NCBI RefSeq assembly: GCF_024223415.1
Contig: NZ_CP100500.1
From: Escherichia coli
GTDB lineage: Bacteria > Pseudomonadota > Gammaproteobacteria > Enterobacterales > Enterobacteriaceae
DNA: 64,000 bases
Reading direction: 5' to 3' (one strand)
In this document: positions 2,176 to 52,367 of the stretch, one piece after another
Layout of the letters: each line of letters starts with the position of its first letter
Numbering within the stretch: position 1 is the stretch's first letter
Made by a program: the position numbers and the translations under genes
Notes under the pieces: generated by a model
Told to the model about the DNA's origin: nothing
The model's input: the letters and a program-made list of their open reading frames with translations, nothing else
Database searches by the model: none

Positions 2176-3336
2176 ATGGACGAAAAGAAACTTAAAGTCC
2201 TTGCGGCTGAACTGGCCAAAGGCCTTAAAACCGAAGCCGACCTCAACCAGTTTTCACGCATGTTGACAAAGCTTACCGTCGAAACGGCGCTCAATGCAGA
2301 ACTGACTGACCATCTAGGTCATGAGAAAAATGCTCCTAAATCAGGCTCTAATACCCGTAATGGCTACTCGTCAAAAACGGTATTGTGCGATGATGGCGAG
2401 ATCGAACTTAACACGCCGCGTGACCGTGAAAATACCTTCGAACCACAACTGGTGAAGAAAAATCAGACCCGCATTACCGGCATGGACAACCAGATCCTGG
2501 CGCTGTATGCCAGAGGGATGACTACCCGCGAAATTACCTCAGCCTTCAAAGAAATGTACGACGCCGATGTCTCGCCCACGCTGATATCCAAAGTGACCGA
2601 TGCGGTTAAAGAACAGGTCTCTGAATGGCAAAACCGACCGTTGGATGCACTGTATCCCATTGTTTATCTTGACTGTATTGTGGTTAAGGTTCGTCACAGC
2701 GGGAGTGTCATTAACAAAGCGGTGTTCCTCGCGCTGGGCATCAATACCGACGGTCAGAAAGAGCTGCTGGATATGTGGCTGGCCGAAAATGAAGGTGCAA
2801 AGTTCTGGCTGAATGTACTGACGGAACTGAAAAATCGCGGCCTGAACGATATCCTTATCGCCTTCGTGGACGGCCTGAAAGGCTTCCCGGAAGCGATAAA
2901 TAGCGTGTACCCGCAGACGCATATTCAGCTCTGCATCATCCATATGGTGCGCAACAGCCTGAAATTCGTGTCGTGGAAGGATTACAAAGCCGTCACCAGC
3001 GGGCTGAAAGCGGTATATCAGGCCCCGACAGAGGAAGCGGCGTTGATGGCGTTGGATAAGTTTGCAGGCGTCTGGGATGAAAAATACCCGCAAATCAGCA
3101 AGAGCTGGCGCACACACTGGGAAAATCTCAACACCTTCTTCGGTTACCCACCGGATATCCGCAAGGCCATCTACACGACGAATGCCATCGAATCGCTGAA
3201 CAGTGTCATTCGGCAGGCGATAAAGAAGCGCAAGGTGTTCCCAACGGACGACTCGGTGCGAAAAGTGATTTATCTGGCGATACAGTCGGCGTCAAAAAAT
3301 GGAGTATGCCAATCCAGAACTGGCGGCTGGCAATGA
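2176..3336 (+). CDS. IS256-family transposase with C-terminal frameshift
   Basis: 386-aa ORF with IS256/mutator-type transposase similarity. The frame breaks in an A-run near 3295-3300; the +1 frame continues KKWSMPIQNWRLAMSRFIIEFGDRLSEHL to a stop at 3381-3383, the expected transposase C-terminus. Confidence 0.85.
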   Translation: MDEKKLKVLAAELAKGLKTEADLNQFSRMLTKLTVETALNAELTDHLGHEKNAPKSGSNTRNGYSSKTVLCDDGEIELNTPRDRENTFEPQLVKKNQTRITGMDNQILALYARGMTTREITSAFKEMYDADVSPTLISKVTDAVKEQVSEWQNRPLDALYPIVYLDCIVVKVRHSGSVINKAVFLALGINTDGQKELLDMWLAENEGAKFWLNVLTELKNRGLNDILIAFVDGLKGFPEAINSVYPQTHIQLCIIHMVRNSLKFVSWKDYKAVTSGLKAVYQAPTEEAALMALDKFAGVWDEKYPQISKSWRTHWENLNTFFGYPPDIRKAIYTTNAIESLNSVIRQAIKKRKVFPTDDSVRKVIYLAIQSASKNGVCQSRTGGWQ

Positions 3337-5358: not shown

Positions 5359-5844
5359 TCTGTTATTCTCCTGTATTATTACTTCACCAGCCAGAACGGT
5401 AGTGCGGAGCAAAAATACAGTGATAAGAATCCTCTTTTATTAATTTAATAATGCCAGGAATATTATTGTGTATAATATGCGCCCTCAATTTAAGCAGCAG
5501 AAAAGCAATGACGCGAAAATCATTAAAATACATACAGATAAAACATCATAACTATAATTATAATAAGCGCGCTTATTTTAGCATCTGAACATTTAAAGTA
5601 CTGCTATCACAAAACAATAAAAATCCTGGTTAATATCTCTGATGATTGAATGAGAAATTCACGATGTCTGGTGAGAATTCTGTTCAAAACGAGGAATGCA
5701 GACGTACACGTGGCAGGTATGGACTTCCACCGATTTAACTTTTTTCCTTCCTTGTATTTACACATCACACATTTTGCGCTACAAAAATTTCACGTGGCAC
5801 GCACCACGTGATCCGTAGAAAAGCCTCTTGTTACGAATTTCGTA

Positions 5845-5879
5845 AACCGCACGTCTGTCTGGTCGTGCGGATTTTTTAT
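5845..5879 (+). terminator. intrinsic-terminator-like hairpin
   Basis: Stem ccgcacg/cgtgcgg with a 10-nt loop, followed by attttttat; no plus-strand ORF of 60 aa or more upstream. Confidence 0.4.
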
Positions 5880-6072
5880 CCGTCAACTTCACATGAAACC
5901 CGCCAGAGCACTGTTTCCGGATTCAGACATCAGGCATATTATCATCCACGATGTCGTGAACAAGATCACACTTTTGCAATTCCTTTATTGATCGAAAGCA
6001 GTTAATCACGGAAATTAATTACCGGAGTGAAAGCATTACTGCATCGTAAATATCTACCATTTTTGACTACAC

Positions 6073-6101
6073 CCTCTGACAGAATTTTCAGAGGGTTTTT
6101 T
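6073..6101 (+). terminator. intrinsic-terminator-like hairpin
   Basis: Perfect 8-bp stem ccctctga/tcagaggg with a 7-nt loop, followed by tttttt. Confidence 0.5.
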
Positions 6102-6185
6102 ATCAGTTTCACCATCCAACCCTGTACGCCAGAATGGTTTCACTGTCACTCAGTTCTGCTATTGCCTTTTTCATCTCCCTTTACC

Positions 6186-6400
6186 TTACGTTCTGCCAGA
6201 GTCTGAGCCATTTGAACAGGAGGTTATCATTGATATCGTGTTCCCGGGCAATACGGGCAACAGAGGCTCCTGGTTGCAAAGCCAGTTTAACCATTTGAAG
6301 TTTAACTCATTTGAAAATGATCTGCGGGGTTCTGCGGATAATGTTTTTGCTCCATAACAGGCGCCCACCAGTTTGAAAAGGTGGGCACCTACGTTACCAA
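6186..6400 (-). pseudogene. IS3-family orfA-like remnant (frameshifted)
   Basis: Minus-strand frames encode ...RRSFSNELNFKW... and MVKLALQPGASVARIAREHDINDNLLFKW..., resembling the HTH region of IS2/IS3-type OrfA; split across frames. Confidence 0.4.
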
Positions 6401-6556
6401 TACTGGCTTAATGGATACATACGGCGGTCGGTTCTTACGGTAAAACGACACAACCAAACGCTTCTTATCCTGCAATGAACTGCTTTATTACCGAGTTTAG
6501 TGACCGCACAGACACTCACTTTTAAGAAAAACAGAATGGTAAACAAACTCCATGAA

Positions 6557-6745
6557 TTACAATAGCTCTCTGGCTGCCGCCACAATAGCTTGCGCGGTTA
6601 ACCCGTACTCTCTCTGTAAAAAGTCCTGAGTTTCAACCTGGCCATACCGCTCTTTAACCCCCACCCGACGCATGGGCACAGGACAAGTTTCTACAAGCAC
6701 TTCAGCAACTGCTGAACCTAATCCATTATGAATACGGTAATGACT
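6557..6745 (-). pseudogene. 3' fragment of a transketolase-like (TPP enzyme) C-terminal-subunit gene, truncated at the IS1 end
   Basis: Minus-strand translation ...HNGLGSAVAEVLVETCPVPMRRVGVKERYGQVETQDFLQREYGLTAQAIVAAARELL then stop (6557-6559); the frame runs straight into the IS1-like inverted repeat at 6745. Confidence 0.5.
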
Positions 6746-6812
6746 CCAATTAGTTGAATTAGGAGTATAATAGCCACTTTTAAGGTTCTTTCATGGTCAC
6801 AGTTAACCTTCA

Positions 6813-7064
6813 TTGCTCCTGTTGCCAGTCCGTTCAGGTTTACCGTCACGGGAAGAACCCAAAGGACATGATCGATTTCGCTGCCGTGACTGTCATCGAG
6901 TGCTTCAGCTCACTTACCGTTACGAGGCCCGTAAACCGGGAGTTAAAGAGCAAATCACTGAAATGGCTTTCAACGGTGCCGGAGTTCGCGATACTGCCCG
7001 TACGCTGAAAATCGGCATTAATACTGTCATCCGGACTTTAAAAAACTCTCGCCACGAAGAATAA
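6813..7064 (+). CDS. insA: IS1-family InsA-like protein
   Basis: 83-aa ORF with Cys-rich N-terminus (CRDCHRVLQL) and InsA-like HTH (ITEMAFNGAGVRDTARTLKIGINTVIRTLKNS); divergent from canonical IS1 InsA. Confidence 0.7.
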   Translation: MLLLPVRSGLPSREEPKGHDRFRCRDCHRVLQLTYRYEARKPGVKEQITEMAFNGAGVRDTARTLKIGINTVIRTLKNSRHEE

Positions 7065-7082
7065 CGTCATACCCGGTCGCTC

Positions 7083-7377
7083 ATGCTGATATGGCACTCA
7101 TCTGCGAACTTGATGAGCAATGGAGTTTTGTCGGCAGTAAAGCGCGACAGCACTGGCTCTGGTACACGTACAACACGAAAACTGGTGGCGTTCTGGCCTA
7201 CACTTTTGGCCTACGGACTGATTAAACCTGTCGTGAATTGCTGGCGCTGCTTGCCCTTTTACCATCGGTATGTTGACCACTGACGAATGGGGTAGTTACA
7301 CCAGAGAGTTACCGAAGGAGAAGCATCTGACTGGTAAGATTTTTACTCAGCGCATTGAGCGCAACATCTACCTCTGA
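7083..7377 (+). pseudogene. insB: IS1-family InsB-like transposase, interrupted
   Basis: Pieces ...DEQWSFVGSKARQHWLWYTYNTKTGGVLAYTFG... and ...DEWGSYTRELPKEKHLTGKIFTQRIERN... match InsB but lie in different frames with stops. Confidence 0.6.
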
Positions 7378-8019
7378 GAACCCGAATCAAACGTCTGGCC
7401 CGCAGAACTATCTGTTTCTCGCGCTCTGTAGAACTTCATGAAAAAGTCATCGGTGCCTTTATCGAAAAATATATGTTCTACTAATTGGAGTCACCACCTT
7501 CGTTTGTTTAAAGAACCTGCTGGTCCTGCCATTAATATTACCTGCTGATTGCTTCACATCCGGATTCCTCGCACTGCGCGCGGGTTATTGTTTCGTTTTC
7601 GGCCACGGGGTCGCCAGGGCTCTGTTTGCAGGCCATGATGGCCTGACCTGTACTGTTTCTCAGGCACTGAGATGTCCGTTTACGCCATTTGTTCCCTGCC
7701 CCTCTGTCTGATAACGAATACGCTCACAACGCACAGTACTGAACAATACCGACAACAACATGTCTTACATGAAATTCGCTGTAACATCCACCGGAAAACA
7801 TTTTCAGATATCGGATGAGGTACTACTTCCATTGACAGCGCGAGGTAACAAAATTGATGGTAACTCTGACCATTAACCGTAAACCGCAGGGTATTTTCAG
7901 TAAATCACCGGCAACGCCGCTGCAGGATAAAACGGACACAGCATACAAAATGAAGGCCGGTGACCAGATACCACAGTTGAACGATAAACAGAAACCTGCT
8001 GATAAAACACCGTGGCGAC

Positions 8020-8365
8020 ATGACAAAACGCCAGAGCAAAAACCGTAAGCGCATTATTCGTCTTGTGGAACTCTGGCCTGAGTCATTCAACCGGGAAAAA
8101 AACAAAACCACTTAAAGTGGGGATACCTGACGACCTGATACAGGATATCGCCATCCGAGAACTGGCGTTTGGCGCTGGTACATTACATGCAGCAGTGGCG
8201 TCTTATGTGCAGTCTCCGCGCTATTACCGTGCGTTAATAGCAGGTGGCGCCCGTTACAACCTGAACGGTCAGCCGTGCGGGGAAGTGACACCACAGGAAC
8301 AGAAAGAGGCAGAGACCCGTTTAATGATGCTGAATGACCGACGAAAAGACAGAAAACCTCGTTGA
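8020..8365 (+). CDS. FinO/ProQ-domain RNA-binding protein, frameshifted in an A7 run
   Basis: Frame from ATG 8020 gives MTKRQSKNRKRIIRLVELWPESFNREK then a stop; the next frame continues KPLKVGIPDDLIQDIAIRELAFGAGTLHAAVASYVQSPRYYRALIAGGARYNLNGQPCGEVTPQEQKEAE, matching the ProQ N-terminal/FinO domain signature. The frames join if the A7 run at 8096-8102 is A6. Confidence 0.6.
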
Positions 8366-8382: not shown

Positions 8383-9135
8383 TCACTGAGCTGTAATCAA
8401 TGTACAGCGCTGTACCGGGCGATGGGTAATACCGGTCACAACCGGTAACCCCAGAGACAATGCAACTGTTTTTAACGCAATATACTGGCCGGATGTATCA
8501 CCCCGGGCAGCCTGAAAACACCTTTCCACCCGGCATTGTCCGTCAGCACTTATCACCCGCCATGTCTGTTGCAATAAATCCACCCGTTGCGAACATTCTT
8601 CATCAACCGTGGCACTGACCCGTGGATGGCAAATGCTCGTCTGGCTGAGCAGCAACAGGCATCGCATTGTTGCTCCTCCATGTTGTTCCCGCAACCAGCG
8701 TAATACCACCGGTGGTGCTGGACTGGCCGTGTGATTACGTTCAGTAATACGCTCGTGCACCTGTCGGTAAAAGGAAGTACAGAATGCATGAATCTGTTGT
8801 CCGTTGATGTTTCCTTCTGCCGAATGGAGTGTGAAGTGGACGGCCAGCAGACGCGGCCAGTGATCCACCGCCTGCTGAATAAAACGCCGGATTTCCACCG
8901 GCTCTGAAAGTACGGTTTCGGTTATTTGCACGATTTGATCCCCTTGAATGTTGCTGAACCGGTGTCGGTACGCAGGAAAGCACGCCGAGACCGGTACGAT
9001 GCCTGTTACAGCGAAGAACGAGGAATGACAGACGGGGGCAGCAGGTCGCCAGCACCAGGGACAGGGCTGATTTCCACAATACCAACGCTGGTATTTTGCA
9101 CATTGCCAGCGTACCGGCATTACAACACGTTTCAT
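8383..9135 (-). CDS. Gp2-family (YagK/YfjJ-like) island protein, third paralog, possibly degenerate
   Basis: Shares a motif pattern with the two upstream paralogs (LLAVHFTLHS..., VLRWLREQHGG...MRCLLLLS). Start uncertain; the Met at 9135 would overlap the alpA stop in an ATGA arrangement. The N-terminal region is low-complexity. Confidence 0.45.
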   Translation of the reverse strand: MKRVVMPVRWQCAKYQRWYCGNQPCPWCWRPAAPVCHSSFFAVTGIVPVSACFPAYRHRFSNIQGDQIVQITETVLSEPVEIRRFIQQAVDHWPRLLAVHFTLHSAEGNINGQQIHAFCTSFYRQVHERITERNHTASPAPPVVLRWLREQHGGATMRCLLLLSQTSICHPRVSATVDEECSQRVDLLQQTWRVISADGQCRVERCFQAARGDTSGQYIALKTVALSLGLPVVTGITHRPVQRCTLITAQ

Positions 9136-9368
9136 GCTGCTGCCCCTCGTGATGCCTCGATTCGTTGCTGCATCCACTGCTCCACTTCACTTTTGTACCA
9201 GCGGCTGCTGCGCCCCAGTTTGATGGGTTTAGGGAAATGGCCTTCACTGATCAGCTTGTAAAACCATTTGTCGGTCATACCAGTGAAGCTGGTGATGTAG
9301 TTCATGTCGATCAGGGGATCGTCGGCACGCAGCAATACGCTGTCGTGACCTGTCATTGAGGTCAACAT
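9132..9368 (-). CDS. alpA: AlpA-family phage/island transcriptional regulator
   Basis: Small ORF with the AlpA-type HTH (MTDKWFYKLISEGHFPKPIKLGRSSRWYKSEVEQW); the true start may be an internal Met. Confidence 0.75.
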   Translation of the reverse strand: MLTSMTGHDSVLLRADDPLIDMNYITSFTGMTDKWFYKLISEGHFPKPIKLGRSSRWYKSEVEQWMQQRIEASRGAAA

Positions 9369-9436
9369 GGTCAGAATGTCCTCTGTGAGATTTATGAATG
9401 TTGGGCAAATGCGGGTGAATCTGCTGAGCTGAGCTT

Positions 9437-10039
9437 TCAGAGCTGGCCTGCTACGGGATACCAGGGATTACCGGCGAGGTAACGGGCTTCCGGATCGCGC
9501 ACACCACGACGATCGCGGGCGAAATCACTGAACGCCCATATCAGCTCTTTGAGTCTCTCTTCGCAGTCCGGTGAACAACTGTCCAGCGCCACATCCCGGG
9601 TTATCTGTTTCTGGTACGGTGCCGCTTCACCCGGTGACGCGAAGCCCAGTACGTTGCTCCAGGCATCCAGAATCAGCCGATCCAGTTCAGGGCCGTCGAA
9701 ATACTCCTGTCTGACGCACAGCACCACGTGGTATTCCGGTTTTTCAGGATGACGAGTCAGGAGCCAGCAGAGGTCACGTCCGGGTGTTGCATTCATCAGC
9801 GCACTGACGGTTTCGATAAAGGCCATACCGAACCAGGTTTTTCTGTCGCTGAAGATGTTGCCATGTTCCCCCGGCAGACGAAGCAGGATCCGCCGTATTC
9901 GGGAGCAGGACTGCTCGCGCAACACACGGTTGAGAACGCCGATGATTTTGTTCTGATAAGATGGCCAGAAGGGCGCCATGCTATAGTCGAAATAAGGGAT
10001 AGCATTCATAAGATATGTTCCGTTATACGCAGCCCACAA
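9437..10039 (-). CDS. Gp2-family (YagK/YfjJ-like) island protein
   Basis: 200-aa ORF paralogous to 10366-11097 (e.g. ...KPEYHVVLCVRQEYFDGPELDRLILDAWSNVLG); belongs to the family common in CP4-type islands. Confidence 0.6.
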   Translation of the reverse strand: MWAAYNGTYLMNAIPYFDYSMAPFWPSYQNKIIGVLNRVLREQSCSRIRRILLRLPGEHGNIFSDRKTWFGMAFIETVSALMNATPGRDLCWLLTRHPEKPEYHVVLCVRQEYFDGPELDRLILDAWSNVLGFASPGEAAPYQKQITRDVALDSCSPDCEERLKELIWAFSDFARDRRGVRDPEARYLAGNPWYPVAGQL

Positions 10040-10365
10040 CGCGTCCTGCCCGTGGATGCGCTGACGTGTTATGGCTTGCGTATGGGGTTGATGGAATAAG
10101 TGAAAAACCGCGGCAGAACGGGAAGATCAGGTAACCGACAAGGGACAGAACACCGGATGCAGGTTCAGAATGAATGATCTCCGTTGACTTCGGTTCACAT
10201 CATTAAGCAGGACAGTAAGGTTTTACCGACGGAGTGTTTCCAGGAGCGAAAGCAGAGAAAAATACCGTTGCATGACTTCAGGACGACTTTTTCAGAAAAC
10301 GAGCTAAGGGCGTCAGCCAACGTCCTGTAGCATAAGCTCAGGCACCGGATGTCGTTTTACAGGGC

Positions 10366-11097
10366 TCACCTGCCATCCAGCAGACGCCCCGGCCCACGAC
10401 TGCAACCATAATTACGTTGCCCGGAACCGTCATGCTGCTTCGTCTCATATTTCACGAGATAACTGGCTCTGTTCCGGGCTTTCTGCAGCGCTTCCACATC
10501 ACCACGCTTGATCCAGAGAACAGCGGCTTCACCCGGCTTTTTTTCTGAAGCCTTCCTGGTATCAGAACATCCACCCGACAAAGGCGTGTCATCGGAAGAA
10601 GGGCGAGCATCAGACGATGCTGGTTTACGGGAAGGCGTCCACCTGGAAAAATGGGCCAGGCCATCGCCTTGCCAGGCCTCAAGATGCAGGGCGCTGCACC
10701 ATGCCTCCAGGATCATCGTCGCCAGCGAAGATGGTTCGCTGAAATCCCCTGGCGAGCACCAGGTATCTTTGTTGAGCAGCAATATCACGTGATAATGTTT
10801 CCTGCCTTTTTCCTTGCCAAACTCCCGACACCAGAAATAACGCAGAGTGGTTGCACGCACACGCTTGTTGGCACGTCGTTTTTTCCGCTGGTAAGCCTGG
10901 ATTTTGGCTTTCAGGGATTCGAAAAAACGAGAAATCACCGCTGAATCCGGATCGGGATCCATGATGGTGACAGGCATATACTCAGGGAAACGTAAATCCA
11001 CCCGGATTAACGAGACGGCACGGTGCTGCGACAGGGCACTGTCGAGAAGGCTGTCAAAACGGGATAACCAGTAAGCATTGTGTATTGGTTGATTCAT
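10366..11097 (-). CDS. Gp2-family (YagK/YfjJ-like) island protein
   Basis: 243-aa ORF (...RKHYHVILLLNKDTWCSPGDFSEPSSLATMILEAWCSAL...); its upstream leader shares a motif with the leader of 9437-10039. Confidence 0.6.
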   Translation of the reverse strand: MNQPIHNAYWLSRFDSLLDSALSQHRAVSLIRVDLRFPEYMPVTIMDPDPDSAVISRFFESLKAKIQAYQRKKRRANKRVRATTLRYFWCREFGKEKGRKHYHVILLLNKDTWCSPGDFSEPSSLATMILEAWCSALHLEAWQGDGLAHFSRWTPSRKPASSDARPSSDDTPLSGGCSDTRKASEKKPGEAAVLWIKRGDVEALQKARNRASYLVKYETKQHDGSGQRNYGCSRGPGRLLDGR

Positions 11098-12755
11098 GAT
11101 GAGAGATCTCCGTTGATTTGGATTGACTTCACATCATTAATCACCGCGGTAAAACTTTACGGCATCATGTCATTAAGCAATGCTACAACTCTCTGATTAA
11201 GAGTGATTGAAACGGAACAAACCATCCCGGAACGAAAAGATAATCCTGCACACAGCAGCAAAACACGCAACAACAGCATGAATGGATTTAAAAACGACAT
11301 GGACGACGAGAAAAGCCTGAAGGGAAAAGGATCCACAGAACATTCGAACAAAACACCAGAAACGCAACCAGAACGCTTCCTGGCAATGCAAATCAACAAC
11401 AACGCCAAAACCTACAGCTTAATCACACAACTCAATCACGAATGCGAATGACACGTTTAAAACCTGTTTACAGATAACGCCGTAACACGATCATCCCCAT
11501 CACCATCAGAATCGATTTTCTCATCCCGAAAATGTTACGTTTCACTACTCACCATAAAAACGATTAACCATCGATAACGTAAATCTCATCTGAATCAAAA
11601 AACCAAAACCAATCATCACACTTTCGCAATGCAAGAAGAAAAACCACATCATGACGAAAACAATGACCTTACATGAAAAAGCAAAACGTCAGGAATCGTT
11701 AATGCCTCAATCTGATTGTTATCAAAACATCCAGAAAGTCGTTTAACAGAATCGTCGTAAGCACATCGAAAAGAACGTCAGATCACCTCAGGAAAGTTCG
11801 GGTTGATTTAGCGTAAAGATACTTTTCTCAGCTTAACGTCGAAACACAAACCAAAAACCACAAACAACCAAAGCTCAGGAAAGGTTAAACGTCACATCAG
11901 TAAAATCGAATAGCAGATTGATTGCTTAAACAGGAAGGATTGTTTTACAGCAGCATTAAACTGATTTAGTTAACGTAAAATCAGAACTGACAGGTTTACT
12001 AACTTGGATGTGTATCAGTTCAAAAATGTGTACAGCAATGCGTAATGAAACACATTTAAAGGAGATTAATGGGAAAAGTGTGTAAATGCGTAAACAGGCA
12101 CTAATGAATCACTGGAGGAATACATACAAAACGACTTAATGAAAACATAAAAGGACCTAATGGAAAAGGTGTATATAATACCATATCCGACATTCTCAAC
12201 ATCTTAAGACATCCATGCAGACTGAATGTTGGTTTCAGTTTTTCACGGTAAGCATGAATCTTTTCTGTTCAAAAGCAGAGCAGATTTACTCTGGAATTAT
12301 TTTTCTTACTCCGTATTCTGTACAGCAAAAACTTGTGCTAACTTTACAGCAAACCATCATAATCAGCGTCTGTAGTCCCATCGCTTTACCCCATGAAAGT
12401 GAATCCATATGATGTGAGAGAGATAAGTCATCGTATCCGGTAAACACTGCTTACTATAACATAAGATCATTCAGTCAGTTTTATCTCTGAACTGACGATT
12501 ATGGCATGCTCATTTATATGGCTCACAGAGGAGTGTTATTATCCGTAAGCTTTAATCATCAAATCACATGACCATACCAAACTGGCGCTATATCAGCTCA
12601 TTTGACGCTCATTCCCTTTAGATTTCTTTATGTGTTTTTTGTCGATAATTAAAATGTAATATAAATTTAATATTTTCACATCATAAACACCATTTAAAAC
12701 CATCATCCTGAACATCATACAACAATATATTTTTACTAAAGCATGAATTGTATAT

Positions 12756-13904
12756 TTATATTAATTCAGGAAAATTATCAGGATTCACCTTTAAATTCAA
12801 CTGAATGTTACACTTAATTTCACTCAGCAGTTCTTCATGCGTGGATTTTATTATCCCTTTATCATAATCTATAAATACACACATGTTTTTCATGAATTCA
12901 AACCCTTTTCCTGTATACAGTTTGATGAATGCCACAAGAGCAAACATTTCAAGATGCAGCCATAATGCCACGTGAGTTTTTCGCAAAGTATAAAAAATTG
13001 AATTCGCCACTTTTTTACTTATTGCTCTTTTGTACTGTGAGTGCGCCAGATTCAGTAGTGGCAATTCTCTCTCGATAAATGAAAGTGAAAAAGGCGGGTA
13101 AATTGATGTCGGAAATATTTCAGGTCTTATGATATTTTCGATTTCCACCATAAATCTATCCATAGAACGAAAATCATTTTCTTTTTTTATTCTGGTATAG
13201 AGACCGCCTTTATTCCTTACTGCGACTTTTTTTCGTGCTATCCCCCCCAACATTTCCTCTAATTGTTTATTTATCTTCGTATCATTAAATACAACCATTC
13301 TTCTTATCATCCTGGGAAGGATGATAATATCAGAGCTTGAATCACTTGAACGGCAATTATTATTGATCCATGCAACTTCAAGTTGAAGTATCGGAACATT
13401 AAATTCTCTGGGGTTAATAACTCTCTGATATTGTTTTTTGTATGCGTTTTCATTAAGATATTCTCTGCTGTAGAGAAACTTATAGCAATATAATCTGACA
13501 ATATCCTTTATGTAAGATTTAAATGAGTCACCTGTAACAGATATATTTTTTCTTCTCAGTAACTCCTGTGTATTGAGCCATTCCCGTGACCGGAGTACTC
13601 CATTATGAAGACTTTTTCTTACTTGCTTTGAATTGCGCAATTGATGTAATATTTTTGCGTCCTCAACAATTCTCTTTCCCGTTTGATTTCTTGCAGCATC
13701 TATTACTCTGTCAAATATCTCCCGGTCCAGACTTTTGTCATATTTACTGATTATACGACAAATATTCCTGACCCGACGGTTCTCTTTATTTCGTTTCCAT
13801 AACTGATAATGATCATCACATAACCTCAGGGCATTTGCCTCATCAAATTCTGAAACAGGATTGCTGCATTTTTTATTCCGACAGATACCTTTGTTTTTAG
13901 CCAT
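12756..13904 (-). CDS. hypothetical protein, orphan AT-rich island cargo gene, function unknown
   Basis: Uninterrupted 382-aa ORF, visibly AT-rich against the flanking genes; N-terminal Cys/His cluster (CRNKKCSN...LCDDHYQLW), K/R-rich, no long hydrophobic segments. No family recognised by me. Divergent from the YeeP-like gene across a 100-bp intergenic region. Confidence 0.6.
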   Translation of the reverse strand: MAKNKGICRNKKCSNPVSEFDEANALRLCDDHYQLWKRNKENRRVRNICRIISKYDKSLDREIFDRVIDAARNQTGKRIVEDAKILHQLRNSKQVRKSLHNGVLRSREWLNTQELLRRKNISVTGDSFKSYIKDIVRLYCYKFLYSREYLNENAYKKQYQRVINPREFNVPILQLEVAWINNNCRSSDSSSDIIILPRMIRRMVVFNDTKINKQLEEMLGGIARKKVAVRNKGGLYTRIKKENDFRSMDRFMVEIENIIRPEIFPTSIYPPFSLSFIERELPLLNLAHSQYKRAISKKVANSIFYTLRKTHVALWLHLEMFALVAFIKLYTGKGFEFMKNMCVFIDYDKGIIKSTHEELLSEIKCNIQLNLKVNPDNFPELI

Positions 13905-14004
13905 ACTCTTCTTCCCGTCAATGGAAAAATTTTCACGTCCATATTACCTGACTGATAGGCCGGATTAATGTGATCCGGTTCAGTGAAATCAACAGGATAA
14001 CGGT

Positions 14005-14889
14005 ATGTCATTCAGCCATTCTTCCCTCTCCGCACACGTAAAGTCACATCTGACCTTTCTTCCTGAAGAAATTCGCCAGAAAATCCTTGAACATCTTCGC
14101 AGCGTCATTCAGTACGAACCCGTTATTGGCATTATGGGTAAATCCGGTGCCGGAAAAAGCAGCCTGTGCAATGCCATTTTTCAGTCCCGTGTCTGCGCCA
14201 CGCATCCGCTGAACGGCTGCACCCGTCAGGCTCATCGTCTTACCTTTCAGCCCGGTGAACGAAGAATGACGCTGGTCGATCTGCCCGGCACTGGCGAAAC
14301 ACCACAGCATGATCAGGAATACCGGGCACTTTACAGTCAGTTACTGCCCGAACTGGATCTGATTATCTGGATCCTGCGGGCTGATGAACGTGCGTATGCT
14401 GCCGACATCGCCATGCATCAGTTTTTACTGAATGAAGGTGCCGATCCCTCGCGTTTTCTGTTTGTTCTCAGCCATGCCGATCGCATCCACCCGGCTGAAG
14501 AATGGAACAACCAGAGCAGCACGCCATCCCGTCAGCAGGAACTCTCACTGGCGACGGTGACAGCCCGGGTGGCAACCCTGTTCCCTTCATCATTTCCGGT
14601 ACTCCCCATAGCCGCCCCTGCCGGCTGGAATCTTCCGGCATTTGTGTCTCTGATGATCCACGCCCTGCCACCACAGGCAACCAGCGCGGTTTATTCGCAT
14701 ATCCGGAATGAAAAGCGCACTGCGCAGGATCAGCAACACGCACAGCAGGCTTTTGGTGACGCCATCGGCCAGAGTTTTGACGCTGCCATTGCCCGGTTCA
14801 GCTTTCCGGCCTGGATGCTGCAGCTTCTGCGCAAAGCCCGTGATCGCATTATCCGCCTGCTGATCACACTGTGGGATCGCCTGTTCTGA
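14005..14889 (+). CDS. YeeP/YfjP/YkfA-family GTPase
   Basis: 294-aa ORF with P-loop GIMGKSGAGKSSLCNAIF and DLPGTGE motif; typical first gene of the CP4-type conserved module. Confidence 0.8.
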   Translation: MSFSHSSLSAHVKSHLTFLPEEIRQKILEHLRSVIQYEPVIGIMGKSGAGKSSLCNAIFQSRVCATHPLNGCTRQAHRLTFQPGERRMTLVDLPGTGETPQHDQEYRALYSQLLPELDLIIWILRADERAYAADIAMHQFLLNEGADPSRFLFVLSHADRIHPAEEWNNQSSTPSRQQELSLATVTARVATLFPSSFPVLPIAAPAGWNLPAFVSLMIHALPPQATSAVYSHIRNEKRTAQDQQHAQQAFGDAIGQSFDAAIARFSFPAWMLQLLRKARDRIIRLLITLWDRLF

Positions 14890-15074
14890 ATGTCCCCGCT
14901 TTTTGACCGGCCCCGGCGATAACCAGGAAACGCATTTCCGGTTGCGTCACCACAATGCTGAAGGGCTTCGGTAAACCCTCATTCATTTCATCCATCAGGC
15001 CGCGTCTTCTCCGTGAGACGCGGCTTTTTCATTGATTACGTCATTCAGTCTTAACCACTGATAAGGAGCAAAGT

Positions 15075-50601: not shown

Positions 50602-52104
50602 TTATTCATCAATTCGCGGATGTTGCTGCACCAGGCGGGTACGTTTCGCCTGCAAATCGGCAATCTCGTGGTCAATATCATCGATTTTCTGCTCGATATT
50701 ATCGTAATGCTCGACGAGAATTTCCTTCGCTTCCTGTATATCTGACGCCGCCGGTGTCGCACCTTTCAACGGACGATTTGCCGTCTCTTTCATGGTTACG
50801 CCGGTGATTAAACCAATCACCGCCACTACCATCAGGTAATAGGCAGGCATCATCAGATTCTGCGAGCTTTCGACCAGCCAGGCCGCCAGTGTTGGCGTCA
50901 GACCGGCAACCAGCACCGAAATATTAAATGCCGCCGCCAGCGCGCTGTATCGGATATGCGTCGGGAACATCGCTGGCAAGGTAGAAGCCATAACGCCCGT
51001 AAAGCAGTTAAGGATCACCGCCAGCATCAGTAACCCGGCAAAAATCAGGCCGATGACGTTACTGTTAATCAGAATAAACGCCGGGATCGCCAACACAAAC
51101 AGTGCAACACTACCAAGTAGCACAAACGGACGACGGCCAAAACGGTCACTCAGCAAGCCCATCACCGGCTGGACAAACAGCATACCGATCATAATGGCGA
51201 TAATAATCAGCACCCCGTGGTCTTCGGAGTAATGCAGGTTATGCGACAAATAACTCGGCATATAGGTCAGCAACATGTAGTAAGTCACGTTGGTGGCAAT
51301 TACCAGACCAATACATGTCAACAGGCTGCGCCAGTATTTAGTGGCAATCTCTTTAAACGAGACTTTCGGGCCATCCTGCAAACCTTCGCGGTCGCCCTGT
51401 TCCAGTTTATCAACATGCTGCTGGAACGCCGGAGTTTCTTCCAGCGCATGGCGCAGGTAAAGCCCGATAATCCCTAACGGCAGAGCAATAAAGAACGGAA
51501 TACGCCAGCCCCAGTCGAGGAAGTTCGCTTCGCCGACAATGGTCGAAATTAACACCACCACGCCCGCACCCAGCACAAACCCGGCAATAGAACCGAAGTC
51601 CAGCCAGCTGCCCATAAAGCCACGTTTACGGTCAGGGGAGTATTCCGCAACAAATATCGACGCCCCGGTATATTCACCGCCGACCGAGAAACCTTGTGCC
51701 ATCTTACAGATCAACAGCAGAATCGGTGCCCAAATACCAATCGTGTCGTAGGACGGTATTAAGCCAATACAGAACGTACTGATCGACATAATCACAATAG
51801 TGATAGCGAGGATCTTCTGGCGACCATATTTATCGCCCAACATACCAAAGAAGAGTCCGCCAAGCGGTCGAATCAGAAAGGGAACGGAGAACGTGGCAAG
51901 TGCAGCAACCATCTGCACGCTGGGGTCAGCCCCCGGGAAAAAAACTTTACCTAATGCGTAAGCAACAAAACCATAAACACCAAAATCAAACCATTCCATT
52001 GCATTACCCAGTGATGCTGCGGTAATGGCTTTACGCAGTTTACCGTCATCAATAATGGTGACATCACGAAGGGTAATCGGTTTTACTTTTTTCCTTTTCA
52101 GCAT
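50602..52104 (-). CDS. proP: proline/glycine betaine:H+ symporter
   Basis: Start at MLKRKKVKPITL (500 aa); MFS transporter with C-terminal coiled-coil (IDDIDHEIADLQAKRTRL). Confidence 0.95.
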   Translation of the reverse strand: MLKRKKVKPITLRDVTIIDDGKLRKAITAASLGNAMEWFDFGVYGFVAYALGKVFFPGADPSVQMVAALATFSVPFLIRPLGGLFFGMLGDKYGRQKILAITIVIMSISTFCIGLIPSYDTIGIWAPILLLICKMAQGFSVGGEYTGASIFVAEYSPDRKRGFMGSWLDFGSIAGFVLGAGVVVLISTIVGEANFLDWGWRIPFFIALPLGIIGLYLRHALEETPAFQQHVDKLEQGDREGLQDGPKVSFKEIATKYWRSLLTCIGLVIATNVTYYMLLTYMPSYLSHNLHYSEDHGVLIIIAIMIGMLFVQPVMGLLSDRFGRRPFVLLGSVALFVLAIPAFILINSNVIGLIFAGLLMLAVILNCFTGVMASTLPAMFPTHIRYSALAAAFNISVLVAGLTPTLAAWLVESSQNLMMPAYYLMVVAVIGLITGVTMKETANRPLKGATPAASDIQEAKEILVEHYDNIEQKIDDIDHEIADLQAKRTRLVQQHPRIDE

Positions 52105-52367
52105 AGCTTTCCTCGCAGAGTTGGCCCATTTCCGCAAACGCCAGAAAAATCAGCGCGACGGCCGCAAAAGGGGAGCGGGAATTGCAGGATGCAATCTCTG
52201 TAACAAGCGTAGCGGGTTTGCTTACACCCTCCGGTTAAGGAATGTACAATCAAACCAGTTGACGCCTGAATTGGGCAGTTAATGACCTTTTTACCCTACC
52301 AGCGTTTAAATTTGTGATCAACTTCACACATGAATTTCGTTTAGGACTCATTGATGTAACTGATTAT

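Follow-up and report, generated by a model that had tools for sequence, protein, structure and literature searches.

Comparative analysis of a 1658-nt tract (positions 11098-12755) in a 64-kb stretch of Escherichia coli DNA, hereafter termed the window, suggested that the tract is a long control or leader region next to a replication-type gene, and neither a dead gene nor a gene for an RNA. Its conserved part belongs to the backbone of a mobile CP4/tmRNA-type genomic island, and we tentatively favor, with somewhat less than even confidence, its interpretation as an expanded divergent control region, whose body serves as a spacer and is probably the C-poor untranslated leader of a Gp2-alpA operon. 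The following features were delineated:

10366-11097, minus strand: gene of a Gp2/YagK-YfjJ family HUH Rep-like protein of 243 aa, its start codon always at the tract edge
11098-11165: near-invariant Gp2-proximal block of about 70 bp
11103-11110: palindrome GAGATCTC with a GATC site, inside the Gp2-proximal block
11108-11111: Shine-Dalgarno sequence CTCC, read on the minus strand, inside the Gp2-proximal block
11148-11161: opL, a 14-bp palindrome GGTAAAACTTTACG, inside the Gp2-proximal block
11166-11994: A+C-rich, G-poor low-complexity spacer, indel-rich and mosaic, with its peak at 11200-11900
11203-11451, plus strand: spurious 82-aa ORF
11995-12171: copy-number-variable array of degenerate 12-13-nt repeats, with units such as ATGCTTAGTAAAA and ATACGTGTAT
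12172-12193: M1, a TATA-like block followed by CCGACAT, TATATAATACCATATCCGACAT, a candidate divergent promoter
12194-12287: M1-M2 segment conserved in E. coli, without conserved RNA structure
12288-12300, plus strand: M2, the 13-nt box ACTCTGGAATTAT followed by a T-run, the last element common to all islands before the cargo
12306-12680: 3' flank of the cargo module, outside the conserved tract
12681-12755: former C-terminal coding sequence of an orphan gene, outside the conserved tract

The initial annotation had described an ORF-poor, strand-skewed tract reaching from 11100 to 12755. Comparison of homologues supported this extent for 11098 to about 12305, the conserved tract proper of about 1.2 kb, whereas homology between islands stops at about 12305, beyond which identity falls to 16-48% except in islands carrying the same orphan gene. 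The interval 11452-12214, reported to lack ORFs of at least 60 aa, contained not a single ORF of at least 40 aa; with 763 nt it is the longest run of the window without ORFs of at least 60 aa, and 11098-12755 ranks second-longest in the window for the absence of ORFs of at least 100 aa. The A+C richness attributed to the plus strand at 11200-11900 was confirmed by a value of 0.663 (A 0.415, C 0.248, G 0.154, T 0.183), effectively the top 700 nt of the window, across which 700-nt segments showed a mean of 0.512 (sd 0.035) and a maximum of 0.669, starting at 11210. The strand is T-poor as claimed, but it is equally poor in G. The reiterated motifs quoted for this stretch were found, with TCAGGAA occurring three times versus 0.13 expected, but GGA overall was not enriched (20 copies in the 1208-nt tract versus 14.4 ± 3.6 expected, P = 0.08). 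Tandem and dispersed repeat finders applied to the window copy returned chance-level pairs only, and a tRNA/tmRNA scan of the window found none.

The tract was detected in 1877 of 5426 complete E. coli genomes, about a third, in a fixed order of Gp2 start, tract, small variable cargo slot and YeeP-type GTPase gene. Gp2 adjoins it in all 65 loci, with the gene start 430-456 nt from the scan motif in each of them, and the GTPase gene comes after it in 33 of 34. The leftward module consists of Gp2-alpA, the rightward one of the cargo slot followed by YeeP GTPase, DUF932 and antirestriction genes. Alignment of the homologues confirmed conservation across related islands: a length of 1.1-1.25 kb is maintained in all 61 unique homologues, which also retain the skew (A+C 0.619-0.663) across about 285 variable sites. 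The tract had no match in the phage collection, its matches in the plasmid collection were four E. coli records, and a Gp2-protein scan of species-representative genomes gave two loci only, both E. coli-like. P4 and CP4-57 of K-12 belong to the same broad island family (alpA, Gp2/YfjJ, YfjP/YeeP GTPase), and the yfjJ-yfjP interval of K-12 is likewise a cargo slot, since it holds the defense systems abpAB and rnlAB. In CP4-57, unlike here, yfjJ is co-directional with yfjP, and homologues of neither the tract nor M2 are present. Gp2-like genes form part of the core of such islands (PMC12595487); literature searches on Gp2/YfjJ/YagK genes and CP4-type islands turned up no account of the tract or of a function of Gp2.

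The Gp2 protein matched the Pfam families YagK_YfjJ_C (E = 1e-35) and REP_ORF2-G2P (E = 6e-9), and gave weak matches to replication-initiation families in PHROGs. Its alignment with homologues of 41-62% identity contains the HUH motif KHYHV and an invariant Tyr213, so that an HUH nuclease gene lies directly beside the tract, as is expected of a rolling-circle origin or oriT. Nucleotide diversity in the adjoining Gp2-proximal block is as low as 0.012-0.035, versus 0.10 at the third codon positions of Gp2. The opL palindrome in this block recurs in Providencia with 13 of 14 matches, located between Gp2 and alpA, and a degenerate copy was found at window position 10227, upstream of a decayed Gp2-like paralogue.

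The body of the tract evolves differently: diversity is 0.09-0.21 in the spacer and 0.09-0.23 over most of the tract, set against the same third-position value of 0.10, and most of the tract thus changes at or above the synonymous rate of the neighboring gene. Conserved blocks are embedded in the spacer (e.g. 11456-11475, 11505-11620, 11741-11770 and 11880-11985) and carry GTAAA/TTTAC half-sites, of which the whole tract contains 12 copies (11149-12285), eight of them at an identity of at least 0.93 versus a tract mean of 0.77. Identity in mosaic blocks points to recombination between islands. E. coli 55989 carries 1.15 kb with a 176-aa plus-strand gene in place of tract positions 188-487. In this strain the locus lies at about 4,992,357-4,995,175 of NC_011748.1, and in SF-166, another strain with the island, at 843,463-844,626 of NZ_CP012633.1.

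Between fixed anchors, the adjacent repeat array varies from 125 to 244 nt among homologues and is the most gap-rich part of the alignment; it becomes apparent only through comparison of homologues. The window's copy is a divergent version containing tiny ORFs preceded by Shine-Dalgarno-like sequences. Such ORFs, noted earlier at about 12060-12240, do exist, but they sit in the array, which differs in all but three unique homologues.

On every test applied, the tract is non-coding, and its description as unusual for its length, strand-skewed and truly without coding capacity was upheld. The 82-aa ORF at 11203-11451, already suspected to be spurious, showed flat diversity by codon position (0.150/0.127/0.124) and was intact in 18 of 61 homologues, and its length is expected because the composition is T-poor (P = 0.17). 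Minus-strand ORFs of 64-93 aa were rejected as genes, being as poorly conserved as the overlapping 82-aa ORF. The RefSeq annotation carries a 'hypothetical protein' call for 11203-11451. For annotation in general, the recurrent 'hypothetical protein' calls within the tract are to be regarded as artefacts.

The initial annotation had also raised the possibility of decayed remnants of a known gene. We consider it very improbable that a gene decayed here, such as one for a membrane protein encoded by the G+T-rich minus strand, even though minus-strand frames yield hydrophobic peptides and many homologues contain open frames of 75-95 codons. Such open frames are predicted by composition alone, they vary by lineage, and diversity by codon position is flat. 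A six-frame NCBIfam search came back empty, and comparison of the three minus-strand frames with 1.84 billion proteins resulted in 18 matches (40-182 aa, mostly 55-95% identity), all of them short ORFs called in this tract itself. With values of 0.2-1.5, the period-3 signal remained under the window median of 2.8, and 53 of 67 indel events were not multiples of 3. The decayed-gene explanation is hence already largely refuted by family, protein, codon-position, periodicity and indel evidence.

A structured non-coding RNA, likewise proposed earlier, was not supported by Rfam, folding energy or compensatory changes. The covariance-model search with Rfam 15 (window positions 9000-15000, both strands, permissive mode) identified no family, its only three matches having E = 2.4-4.8 and 14-21 bits versus gathering scores of 45-52. 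In 150-nt windows of either strand, folding-energy z-scores lay between −1.95 and +2.06, and RNAalifold applied to 16 diverse sequences of the M1-M2 segment, the best-conserved part, gave −5.5 kcal/mol with none of 15 pairs compensatory. Unlike the immunity leader of the satellite P4 (CI RNA; Rfam C4), the tract revealed no C4/CI-like RNA. Several specific candidates were rejected as well. A CsrA-sequestering RNA of the CsrB/CsrC type was dismissed, as GGA is not enriched and 16 of the 20 copies are kept in at most 62% of homologues (0.03-0.6 for most copies, with seven kept in at most 5%). The stems of the putative minus-strand intrinsic terminators at 11358-11380 and 11264-11280 are disrupted in variants, with no compensating changes, and for the hairpin with T-run at 12276-12306 the stem is weak and lost in L006-type variants; in other genera the T-run after M2 is absent. 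Primer sequences (PMC4546395) for PapR, an island sRNA of ExPEC, EHEC and Shigella with a similar strain distribution, were unmatched in the window.

The tract may possibly give rise to an unstructured transcript or leader. One form of this idea, which we regard as improbable, is a long non-coding RNA read from the plus strand, rich in A and C and without structure. It would start close to the Gp2 divergent region, end at the weak hairpin with its T-run (12276-12306), and serve, for instance, as a sponge that titrates Hfq or GU-rich sRNAs of the GcvB kind, or as a CsrA decoy. The end of conserved homology at this plus-strand hairpin, the CA-rich motifs together with the three TCAGGAA copies, and the plus-strand gene inside the tract of E. 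coli 55989, which makes plus-strand transcription conceivable there, are consistent with such an RNA. It would, however, have neither an Rfam match nor structure, a conserved plus-strand promoter at the Gp2 end is missing, and its GGA motifs are not enriched and mostly unconserved. The presumed terminator is weak, not kept in L006-type variants and missing after M2 in other genera, the sequence evolves roughly as fast as synonymous sites, PapR, an island sRNA already known, was not located here, and the RNA itself would make an ideal Rho target. The remaining proposal of the initial annotation, that the tract is a long leader of the orphan gene downstream, cannot hold because the orphan gene lies on the minus strand with its 3' end toward the tract; the sole gene that has the tract upstream is Gp2.

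At the distal end, comparison across genera suggests that M1 and M2 are the sole conserved pieces. M1 is conserved in E. coli homologues and recognizable in Providencia (TATATTACTATATCCGACAT), in the distant islands L086 and L089 (TATATTACCAATCAGACA) and in Brenneria, where it lies 75-105 nt from M2 toward Gp2. It carries a −10-like hexamer with at least 5/6 matches on the plus strand and, on the minus strand, a −10-like motif with a TGn extension, each in 60 of 60 sequences. The M2 box ACTCTGGARTTAT also precedes Gp2 genes of distant islands, among them those of Providencia and Brenneria; 45 of 91 loci hold a single exact copy each, and the window holds a single copy. M2 lies 260-900 nt upstream of Gp2 without change of orientation in Providencia, L086 and L089, and likewise, with one mismatch, in Brenneria, L095 and L098. 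Gp2 is only 33-43% identical in the distant islands where M1, M2 and opL persist with constant side and orientation. The equivalent spacer in other genera measures 150-450 nt only. In Providencia, the 449-bp gap between Gp2 and the GTPase gene holds equivalent elements and shows a skew of the same sign, with 5-7% G on the corresponding strand. The skew is missing from other distant islands (Brenneria, L089, L091 and L092-L100) and is thus not a general requirement of the Gp2 module.

According to the interpretation we favor, an expanded divergent control region, the functional sites would lie at the two ends of the tract, namely the Gp2-proximal 70 bp with the ribosome-binding site and opL, and the distal M1 and M2. 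The stretch from Gp2 to M1 would have expanded to about 1.07 kb in E. coli, with cargo genes inserted just past M2. If Gp2 is transcribed leftward from M1, the tract would constitute a long untranslated Gp2 leader; in agreement with this, most of the 61 sequences gave no predicted sigma-70-like promoter within 150 nt of the Gp2 start. M2 would then lie outside the leader, being on the far side of M1 from Gp2, which counts against this reading. The minus-sense RNA would be C-poor (about 15% C; 5-7% in Providencia) and hence a poor Rho substrate, while any rightward transcript would be unstructured with C exceeding G, an ideal Rho substrate, so that transcription could pass through the spacer one way. 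The spacer may additionally provide homology for swapping adjacent cargo. On the plus strand, C/G exceeds 1.5 in 36 of 113 78-nt windows and reaches 2-3 over 11338-11640, and folding energy is merely −11 to −15 kcal/mol per 150 nt; this strand has the composition of a rut region (untranslated, unstructured, C-rich and G-poor over at least about 80 nt). It resembles enterobacterial rut sites and long leaders in being untranslated and unstructured with C exceeding G over about 300-700 nt, and the complementary RNA resembles Rho-resistant leaders in being C-poor, a likeness of composition alone.

Existence and direction of the transcript were deduced from consensus matches in AT-rich DNA, which easily arise by chance. 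A complete −35/−10 pair was conserved in no more than 26 of 61 sequences, and a promoter scan of the window returned fewer sites than its shuffles (4 versus 6.3). The lack of a conserved full −35/−10 promoter speaks against a leader, and a leader of 1.07 kb would be unusually long. Near-neutral diversity over most of the tract fits a functionless spacer equally well.

The main rival explanation, which we consider unlikely, is a replication or transfer origin, at which the HUH protein Gp2 would nick or bind M2, perhaps together with M1, and the repeat array and AT-rich DNA would act as iteron or unwinding elements. The skew (T > A and G > C on the minus strand) would then have arisen because the Gp2-sense strand is repeatedly exposed in single-stranded form as the excised island replicates by rolling circle or is mobilized. 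This explanation draws on the Rep_ORF2-G2P domain of Gp2 with its conserved HUH and Tyr motifs and weak replication-initiator matches, and on M2, which no other non-coding sequence in the vicinity of Gp2 matches in conservation between genera. M2 goes with Gp2 and not with the GTPase gene, since L084, L086 and L089 have M2 without the GTPase. Furthermore, a variable iteron-like array adjoins M2, and cargo variation starts about 5-25 nt from it. In contrast, neither M2 nor M1 is surrounded by a conserved stem or hairpin, M2 is single-copy without a second ter-like site in the window, and its distance to Gp2 ranges from 260 to 1190 nt. The skew is limited to the spacer instead of being island-wide, other Gp2 islands lack it, and mutation pressure in a mostly passively replicated element would not account for its strength. 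A literature search for this protein family yielded the core-gene statement only (PMC12595487), and nothing on nicking or replication.

The layout resembles that of known origins, in keeping with this rival. The Ff phages (f1/M13/fd) carry an intergenic origin upstream of gene II and a viral-strand bias, and oriT regions are situated between relaxase and leading-region operons. Like the Ff origin, the tract is non-coding, AT-rich and directly upstream of a G2P-type HUH Rep-domain gene, contains short sequence-specific sites, and has a strand bias that agrees in sign with that of the phage viral strand, the Rep-sense strand being T-rich and C-poor. Unlike it, the tract is chromosomal, exceeds it two- to threefold in length and lacks strong hairpins such as those of the Ff origin and packaging signal, and the match of Gp2 to REP_ORF2-G2P is weak. 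Compared with oriT and divergent regions of conjugative plasmids (e.g. RP4 traJ-traK), an HUH gene and genes of early-entry type (GTPase, DUF932, antirestriction, RadC/JAB, toxin-antitoxin) similarly diverge from a shared non-coding region containing short, highly conserved boxes. Plasmid oriT regions, however, typically span 250-350 bp; in the tract no match to a known nic consensus could be verified, and Gp2 belongs to no recognized MOB relaxase family. A more far-reaching version, which we judge decidedly unlikely, is that M2 (ACTCTGGARTTAT), M1 and the array could form the origin or nick site of an uncharacterized YagK/YfjJ-Gp2 HUH Rep system that replicates by rolling circle, or mobilizes, excised islands; the skew would be a record of single-stranded DNA, and the cargo slot would be filled by Rep-mediated or origin-proximal recombination. 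Such a system would explain how very common islands exchange orphan, possibly defense, genes.

It is also unlikely, in our estimation, that everything between the two ends of the tract is filler without function, made of low-complexity DNA that grew by slippage and insertion and persists only because the islands are young and often recombine. Diversity that equals or exceeds the synonymous level agrees with this, as do the numerous indels, the mosaic blocks, the replacement of a segment by unrelated DNA in 55989, the short spacers of other genera, and the absence of all coding, structure and family signals. Mere filler is nevertheless difficult to reconcile with a length of 1.1-1.25 kb kept in every homologue despite bacterial deletion bias, with a skew that survives all the variable sites and has the same sign in Providencia, and with internal blocks and GTAAA half-sites conserved well over the tract mean. 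If the spacer is filler, the finding would be ordinary, whereas a Rho-proof leader or a Rep origin would explain the unusually strong local strand skew.

The elements opL, M1 and M2 provide a testable set of cis-elements, with M2 kept from E. coli to Providencia and Brenneria and linked to Gp2. Islands of this type often occur in several copies per genome, and their cargo includes adhesins, toxin-antitoxin pairs and genes of no known family. The exact boundary of the small cargo slot is now set; its genes match no known family, and a comparison of the cargo proteins with PADLOC, PHROGs and NCBIfam gave zero matches. In the window, the orphan gene carries a nonsense codon (TAA, 12756-12758), beyond which the homologues L001 and L011 continue to 407 aa.

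Megablast comparison with complete Escherichia coli genomes revealed that the ORF-poor, strand-skewed tract beginning at 11098 is present in 1877 of 5426 genomes, at up to seven places per genome, with homology usually spanning query positions 1 to ~1219 or less (11100 to ~12318 of the window). Scanning metagenome contigs for a motif brought in 67 further loci, and 61 unique full-length homologues were obtained in all, so that the alignment check suggested in the initial annotation returned conservation across related islands. Gene order was identical in eleven annotated loci, namely Gp2 (minus strand), a gap of 1.45–1.9 kb without credible gene, one or two variable cargo genes and the YeeP/YfjP-type GTPase gene (plus strand). 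The Gp2 start lay 430–456 nt from the scan motif in 65/65 loci with enough sequence, and the GTPase gene 2.36–3.46 kb rightward in 33 of 34 loci. Past ~12305–12330, homology was kept only among islands sharing cargo. The tract was found neither in K-12 CP4-57 nor in the phage collection, while the plasmid collection held only four records with it, all from E. coli. We conclude that the tract belongs to the island backbone as a non-coding element, widespread and unannotated.

Its reported poverty in ORFs and its A+C-rich, T-poor composition were both borne out. In the ORF listing, with the sequence read over 10800–13200, no ORF of at least 40 aa fell between 11452 and 12214. Among stretches without ORFs of at least 60 aa, this gap of 763 nt is the longest in the 64-kb window, and among those without ORFs of at least 100 aa, 11098–12755 ranks second. 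The longest of the latter, 5413–8062, is annotated with IS1, other transposase fragments and pseudogenes in a near-identical RefSeq locus. Base fractions at 11200–11900 are A 0.415, C 0.248, G 0.154 and T 0.183, with G depletion equalling T depletion, and the A+C content of 0.663 lies at the extreme of the window (700-nt windows: mean 0.512, sd 0.035). This skew is held in every homologue (0.619–0.663) across ~285 biallelic sites. The most T-poor 700 nt (T = 0.173, start 50899) lie within a 511-aa minus-strand ORF (50602–52137) and thus reflect coding composition unrelated to the tract.

Six-frame translations of the tract gave no NCBIfam match, and the three minus-strand frames of 11166–11990, searched against 1.84 billion representative proteins, retrieved only 18 short proteins (40–182 aa), which were mostly 55–95% identical and stem from ORFs called within the tract of other genomes. 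The annotated 82-aa ORF (11203–11451) is spurious, as had been suspected: its diversity is flat over codon positions (0.150/0.127/0.124), it is uninterrupted in 18 of 61 homologues, and its length is within expectation for a T-poor composition (P = 0.17). Minus-strand ORFs displayed no third-position excess and their reading frame shifts between lineages. The tiny ORFs preceded by Shine-Dalgarno-like sequences do exist, but they are sited in a variable repeat array whose window version recurs in only two other unique sequences. The proposal of a decayed known gene was contradicted by the missing NCBIfam match, the absent period-3 signal (0.2–1.5 vs. a window median of 2.8) and indels of which 53 of 67 distinct events were not multiples of three; we regard a decayed gene as highly improbable.

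The suggestion of a non-coding RNA fared similarly. Rfam in permissive mode returned three matches, all at chance level, and folding-energy z-scores ranged from −1.95 to +2.06 (150-nt windows, both strands). Applied to 16 diverse copies of the best-conserved stretch at the distal end, RNAalifold yielded −5.5 kcal/mol with zero compensatory pairs. Folding of the plus strand at 11275–11650 is weak (−11 to −15 kcal/mol per 150 nt), and an unstructured non-coding RNA from this strand appears quite unlikely. We regard the tract as neither an RNA gene nor a pseudogene. A CsrB-like decoy was rejected, GGA motifs being neither enriched (20 vs. 14.4 ± 3.6 expected) nor mostly conserved, and PapR, an island sRNA with similar strain distribution, was absent from the tract.

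The tract is composed of the following elements:

11098–11165: nearly invariant block with a Shine-Dalgarno sequence, a GAGATCTC palindrome with GATC site, and opL
11148–11161: opL, 14-bp palindrome GGTAAAACTTTACG
11166–11994: skewed, low-complexity spacer, rich in indels, with several conserved blocks
11995–12171: repeat array of degenerate 12–13-nt units, 125–244 nt long among homologues, divergent in the window
12172–12193: M1, TATA-like block, then CCGACAT
12288–12300: M2, 13-nt box ACTCTGGAATTAT, then a T-run

Nucleotide diversity over most of the tract is 0.09–0.23, at or above synonymous-like level, and falls to 0.012–0.035 in the Gp2-proximal 70 bp; at codon positions 1/2/3 of Gp2 it is 0.065/0.042/0.100. 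The near-neutral diversity would suit functionless filler between two tract ends, a reading rendered doubtful by the maintained length, the maintained skew and the conserved internal blocks. GTAAA/TTTAC half-sites occur in 12 copies over the whole tract (11149–12285), eight of them conserved at 0.93 or more (tract mean 0.77), and plus-strand CGTAAA in four copies vs. 0.47 expected. Along the tract, homologues match the window in a mosaic of identity levels, indicative of recombination between islands. In E. coli 55989 (locus L082 5175–6330, NC_011748.1) and two further fetched loci (L087, L088), tract positions 188–487 are swapped for ~1.15 kb encoding a 176-aa plus-strand protein of unknown family (WP_000778605.1). 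The invariant GAGATCTC palindrome (11103–11110), with its internal Dam GATC site, overlaps the Gp2 Shine-Dalgarno sequence; many strains carry Dam/OxyR-regulated antigen 43 on islands of this family.

On the left, the tract adjoins the start codon of a 243-aa minus-strand Gp2 gene, whose product matches Pfam YagK_YfjJ_C (E = 1e-35) and REP_ORF2-G2P (E = 6e-9), weakly matches PHROG replication-initiator families and, in alignment with homologues of 41–62% identity, carries an HUH motif (KHYHV) and an invariant tyrosine. Farther left follow a decayed Gp2-like paralogue, alpA and a UCP030791 gene. On the right, a 382-aa minus-strand orphan gene precedes the plus-strand GTPase gene and points its 3' end toward the tract, which rules out the proposed long leader for this orphan.

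For distant comparison, contigs carrying Gp2 homologues of 33–43% identity were fetched. The Providencia island has a spacer of only 449 nt from which Gp2 and the GTPase gene diverge; counted from the Gp2 start, M1 (TATATTACTATATCCGACAT) occupies 243–264 and M2 (ACTCTGGAGTTAT) 339–351. Over the initial 300 nt of this spacer, A+C is 0.65 and G is 5–7%, with the skew sign of E. coli. opL recurs in Providencia between Gp2 and alpA with 13/14 matches. A single M2 in the same orientation lies 260–900 nt upstream of Gp2 in Brenneria (one mismatch), the fetched loci L086 and L089, and the IMG/VR loci L095 and L098 (one mismatch each), where we estimate that chance would yield fewer than one 13-mer match, one mismatch allowed, in the whole set. 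The position and orientation of M2 are consistent in every one of these loci, each with an M1-like block 75–105 nt to its Gp2 side. Islands without the GTPase gene still have M2, which therefore goes with Gp2/alpA. Strong skew was not observed in Brenneria, L089, the IMG/VR loci or the fetched locus L091.

Within HUH-type systems, the best-conserved non-coding sequence is usually the nick site. The conservation of M2 and M1 would thus fit an origin for the HUH protein formed by M2/M1 and the repeat array, and cargo variation begins beside M2; this main rival, with no conserved hairpin and no match to a known nic consensus, is in our view unlikely. Should M2 turn out to be a Rep origin, the finding would gain interest.

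From its sequence, the tract is instead best taken for a control region, a leader or a spacer, with a few well-defined cis elements, the simplest model being an expanded form of a compact divergent control region. Functional sites would lie at either end, with opL and the ribosome-binding site beside Gp2 and with M1 and M2 distally, while the E. coli lineage would have enlarged the middle and received cargo directly past M2. No sigma-70-like promoter was predicted near the Gp2 start in most homologues, whereas M1 contains, in 60/60 sequences, a plus-strand −10-like hexamer (at least 5/6) and a minus-strand TGn-extended −10-like motif. Judging by consensus matches in AT-rich DNA, Gp2-alpA may thus be transcribed from M1, in which case the tract would form a ~1.07-kb leader. 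By composition, this C-poor leader RNA would be a poor Rho substrate and the rightward transcript, unstructured with C>G, an ideal one, which would rationalize the skew.

No description of the tract, nor a function for YagK/YfjJ-Gp2 proteins, was found in the literature. In tmRNA-linked islands of Pseudomonas, according to a 2025 study (PMC12595487), the core functions probably comprise intY, alpA, an inovirus Gp2-like gene, RadC and an HTH protein, with roles unassigned; this places the present island within a broad, poorly understood class.

Several observations concern neighbouring genes. E. coli Gp2 contains a ~45-aa low-complexity Ser/Pro/Asp-rich insertion (residues ~151–195) absent in Providencia, Brenneria and other homologues. 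The second 'Gp2 gene' (9437–10365) has marginal Gp2 similarity (25% over 48 aa, E = 0.003) and ahead of it, at 10170–10230, a degenerate Gp2 5' region (Shine-Dalgarno, opL-like GGTAAAACCTTACT) without start codon, and therefore resembles a decayed duplicate. A ProQ/FinO-family gene 3 kb left of the tract (~7857–8365; 2758–3266 in the fetched locus L001) is frameshifted according to the annotation of the identical RefSeq locus; an RNA chaperone encoded by the island might have a partner among island RNAs. The orphan (12756–13904) has a TAA at 12756–12758 where its homologues in L001 and L011 have a Glu/Asp codon and continue to 407 aa, with their stop at the equivalent of 12681, leaving the window orphan 25 residues short; its protein had no match in NCBIfam, PADLOC or PHROGs. 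The cargo slot between M2 (12300) and the GTPase gene (14005) holds alternative gene sets in L002, L005, L006 and L009–L013, either a 376–407-aa minus-strand orphan or pairs of 262/316 or 284/320 aa, none with a family match. In K-12 CP4-57, the equivalent yfjJ–yfjP interval is occupied by the defence systems abpAB and rnlAB, which makes the cargo-slot orphans candidate defence genes.
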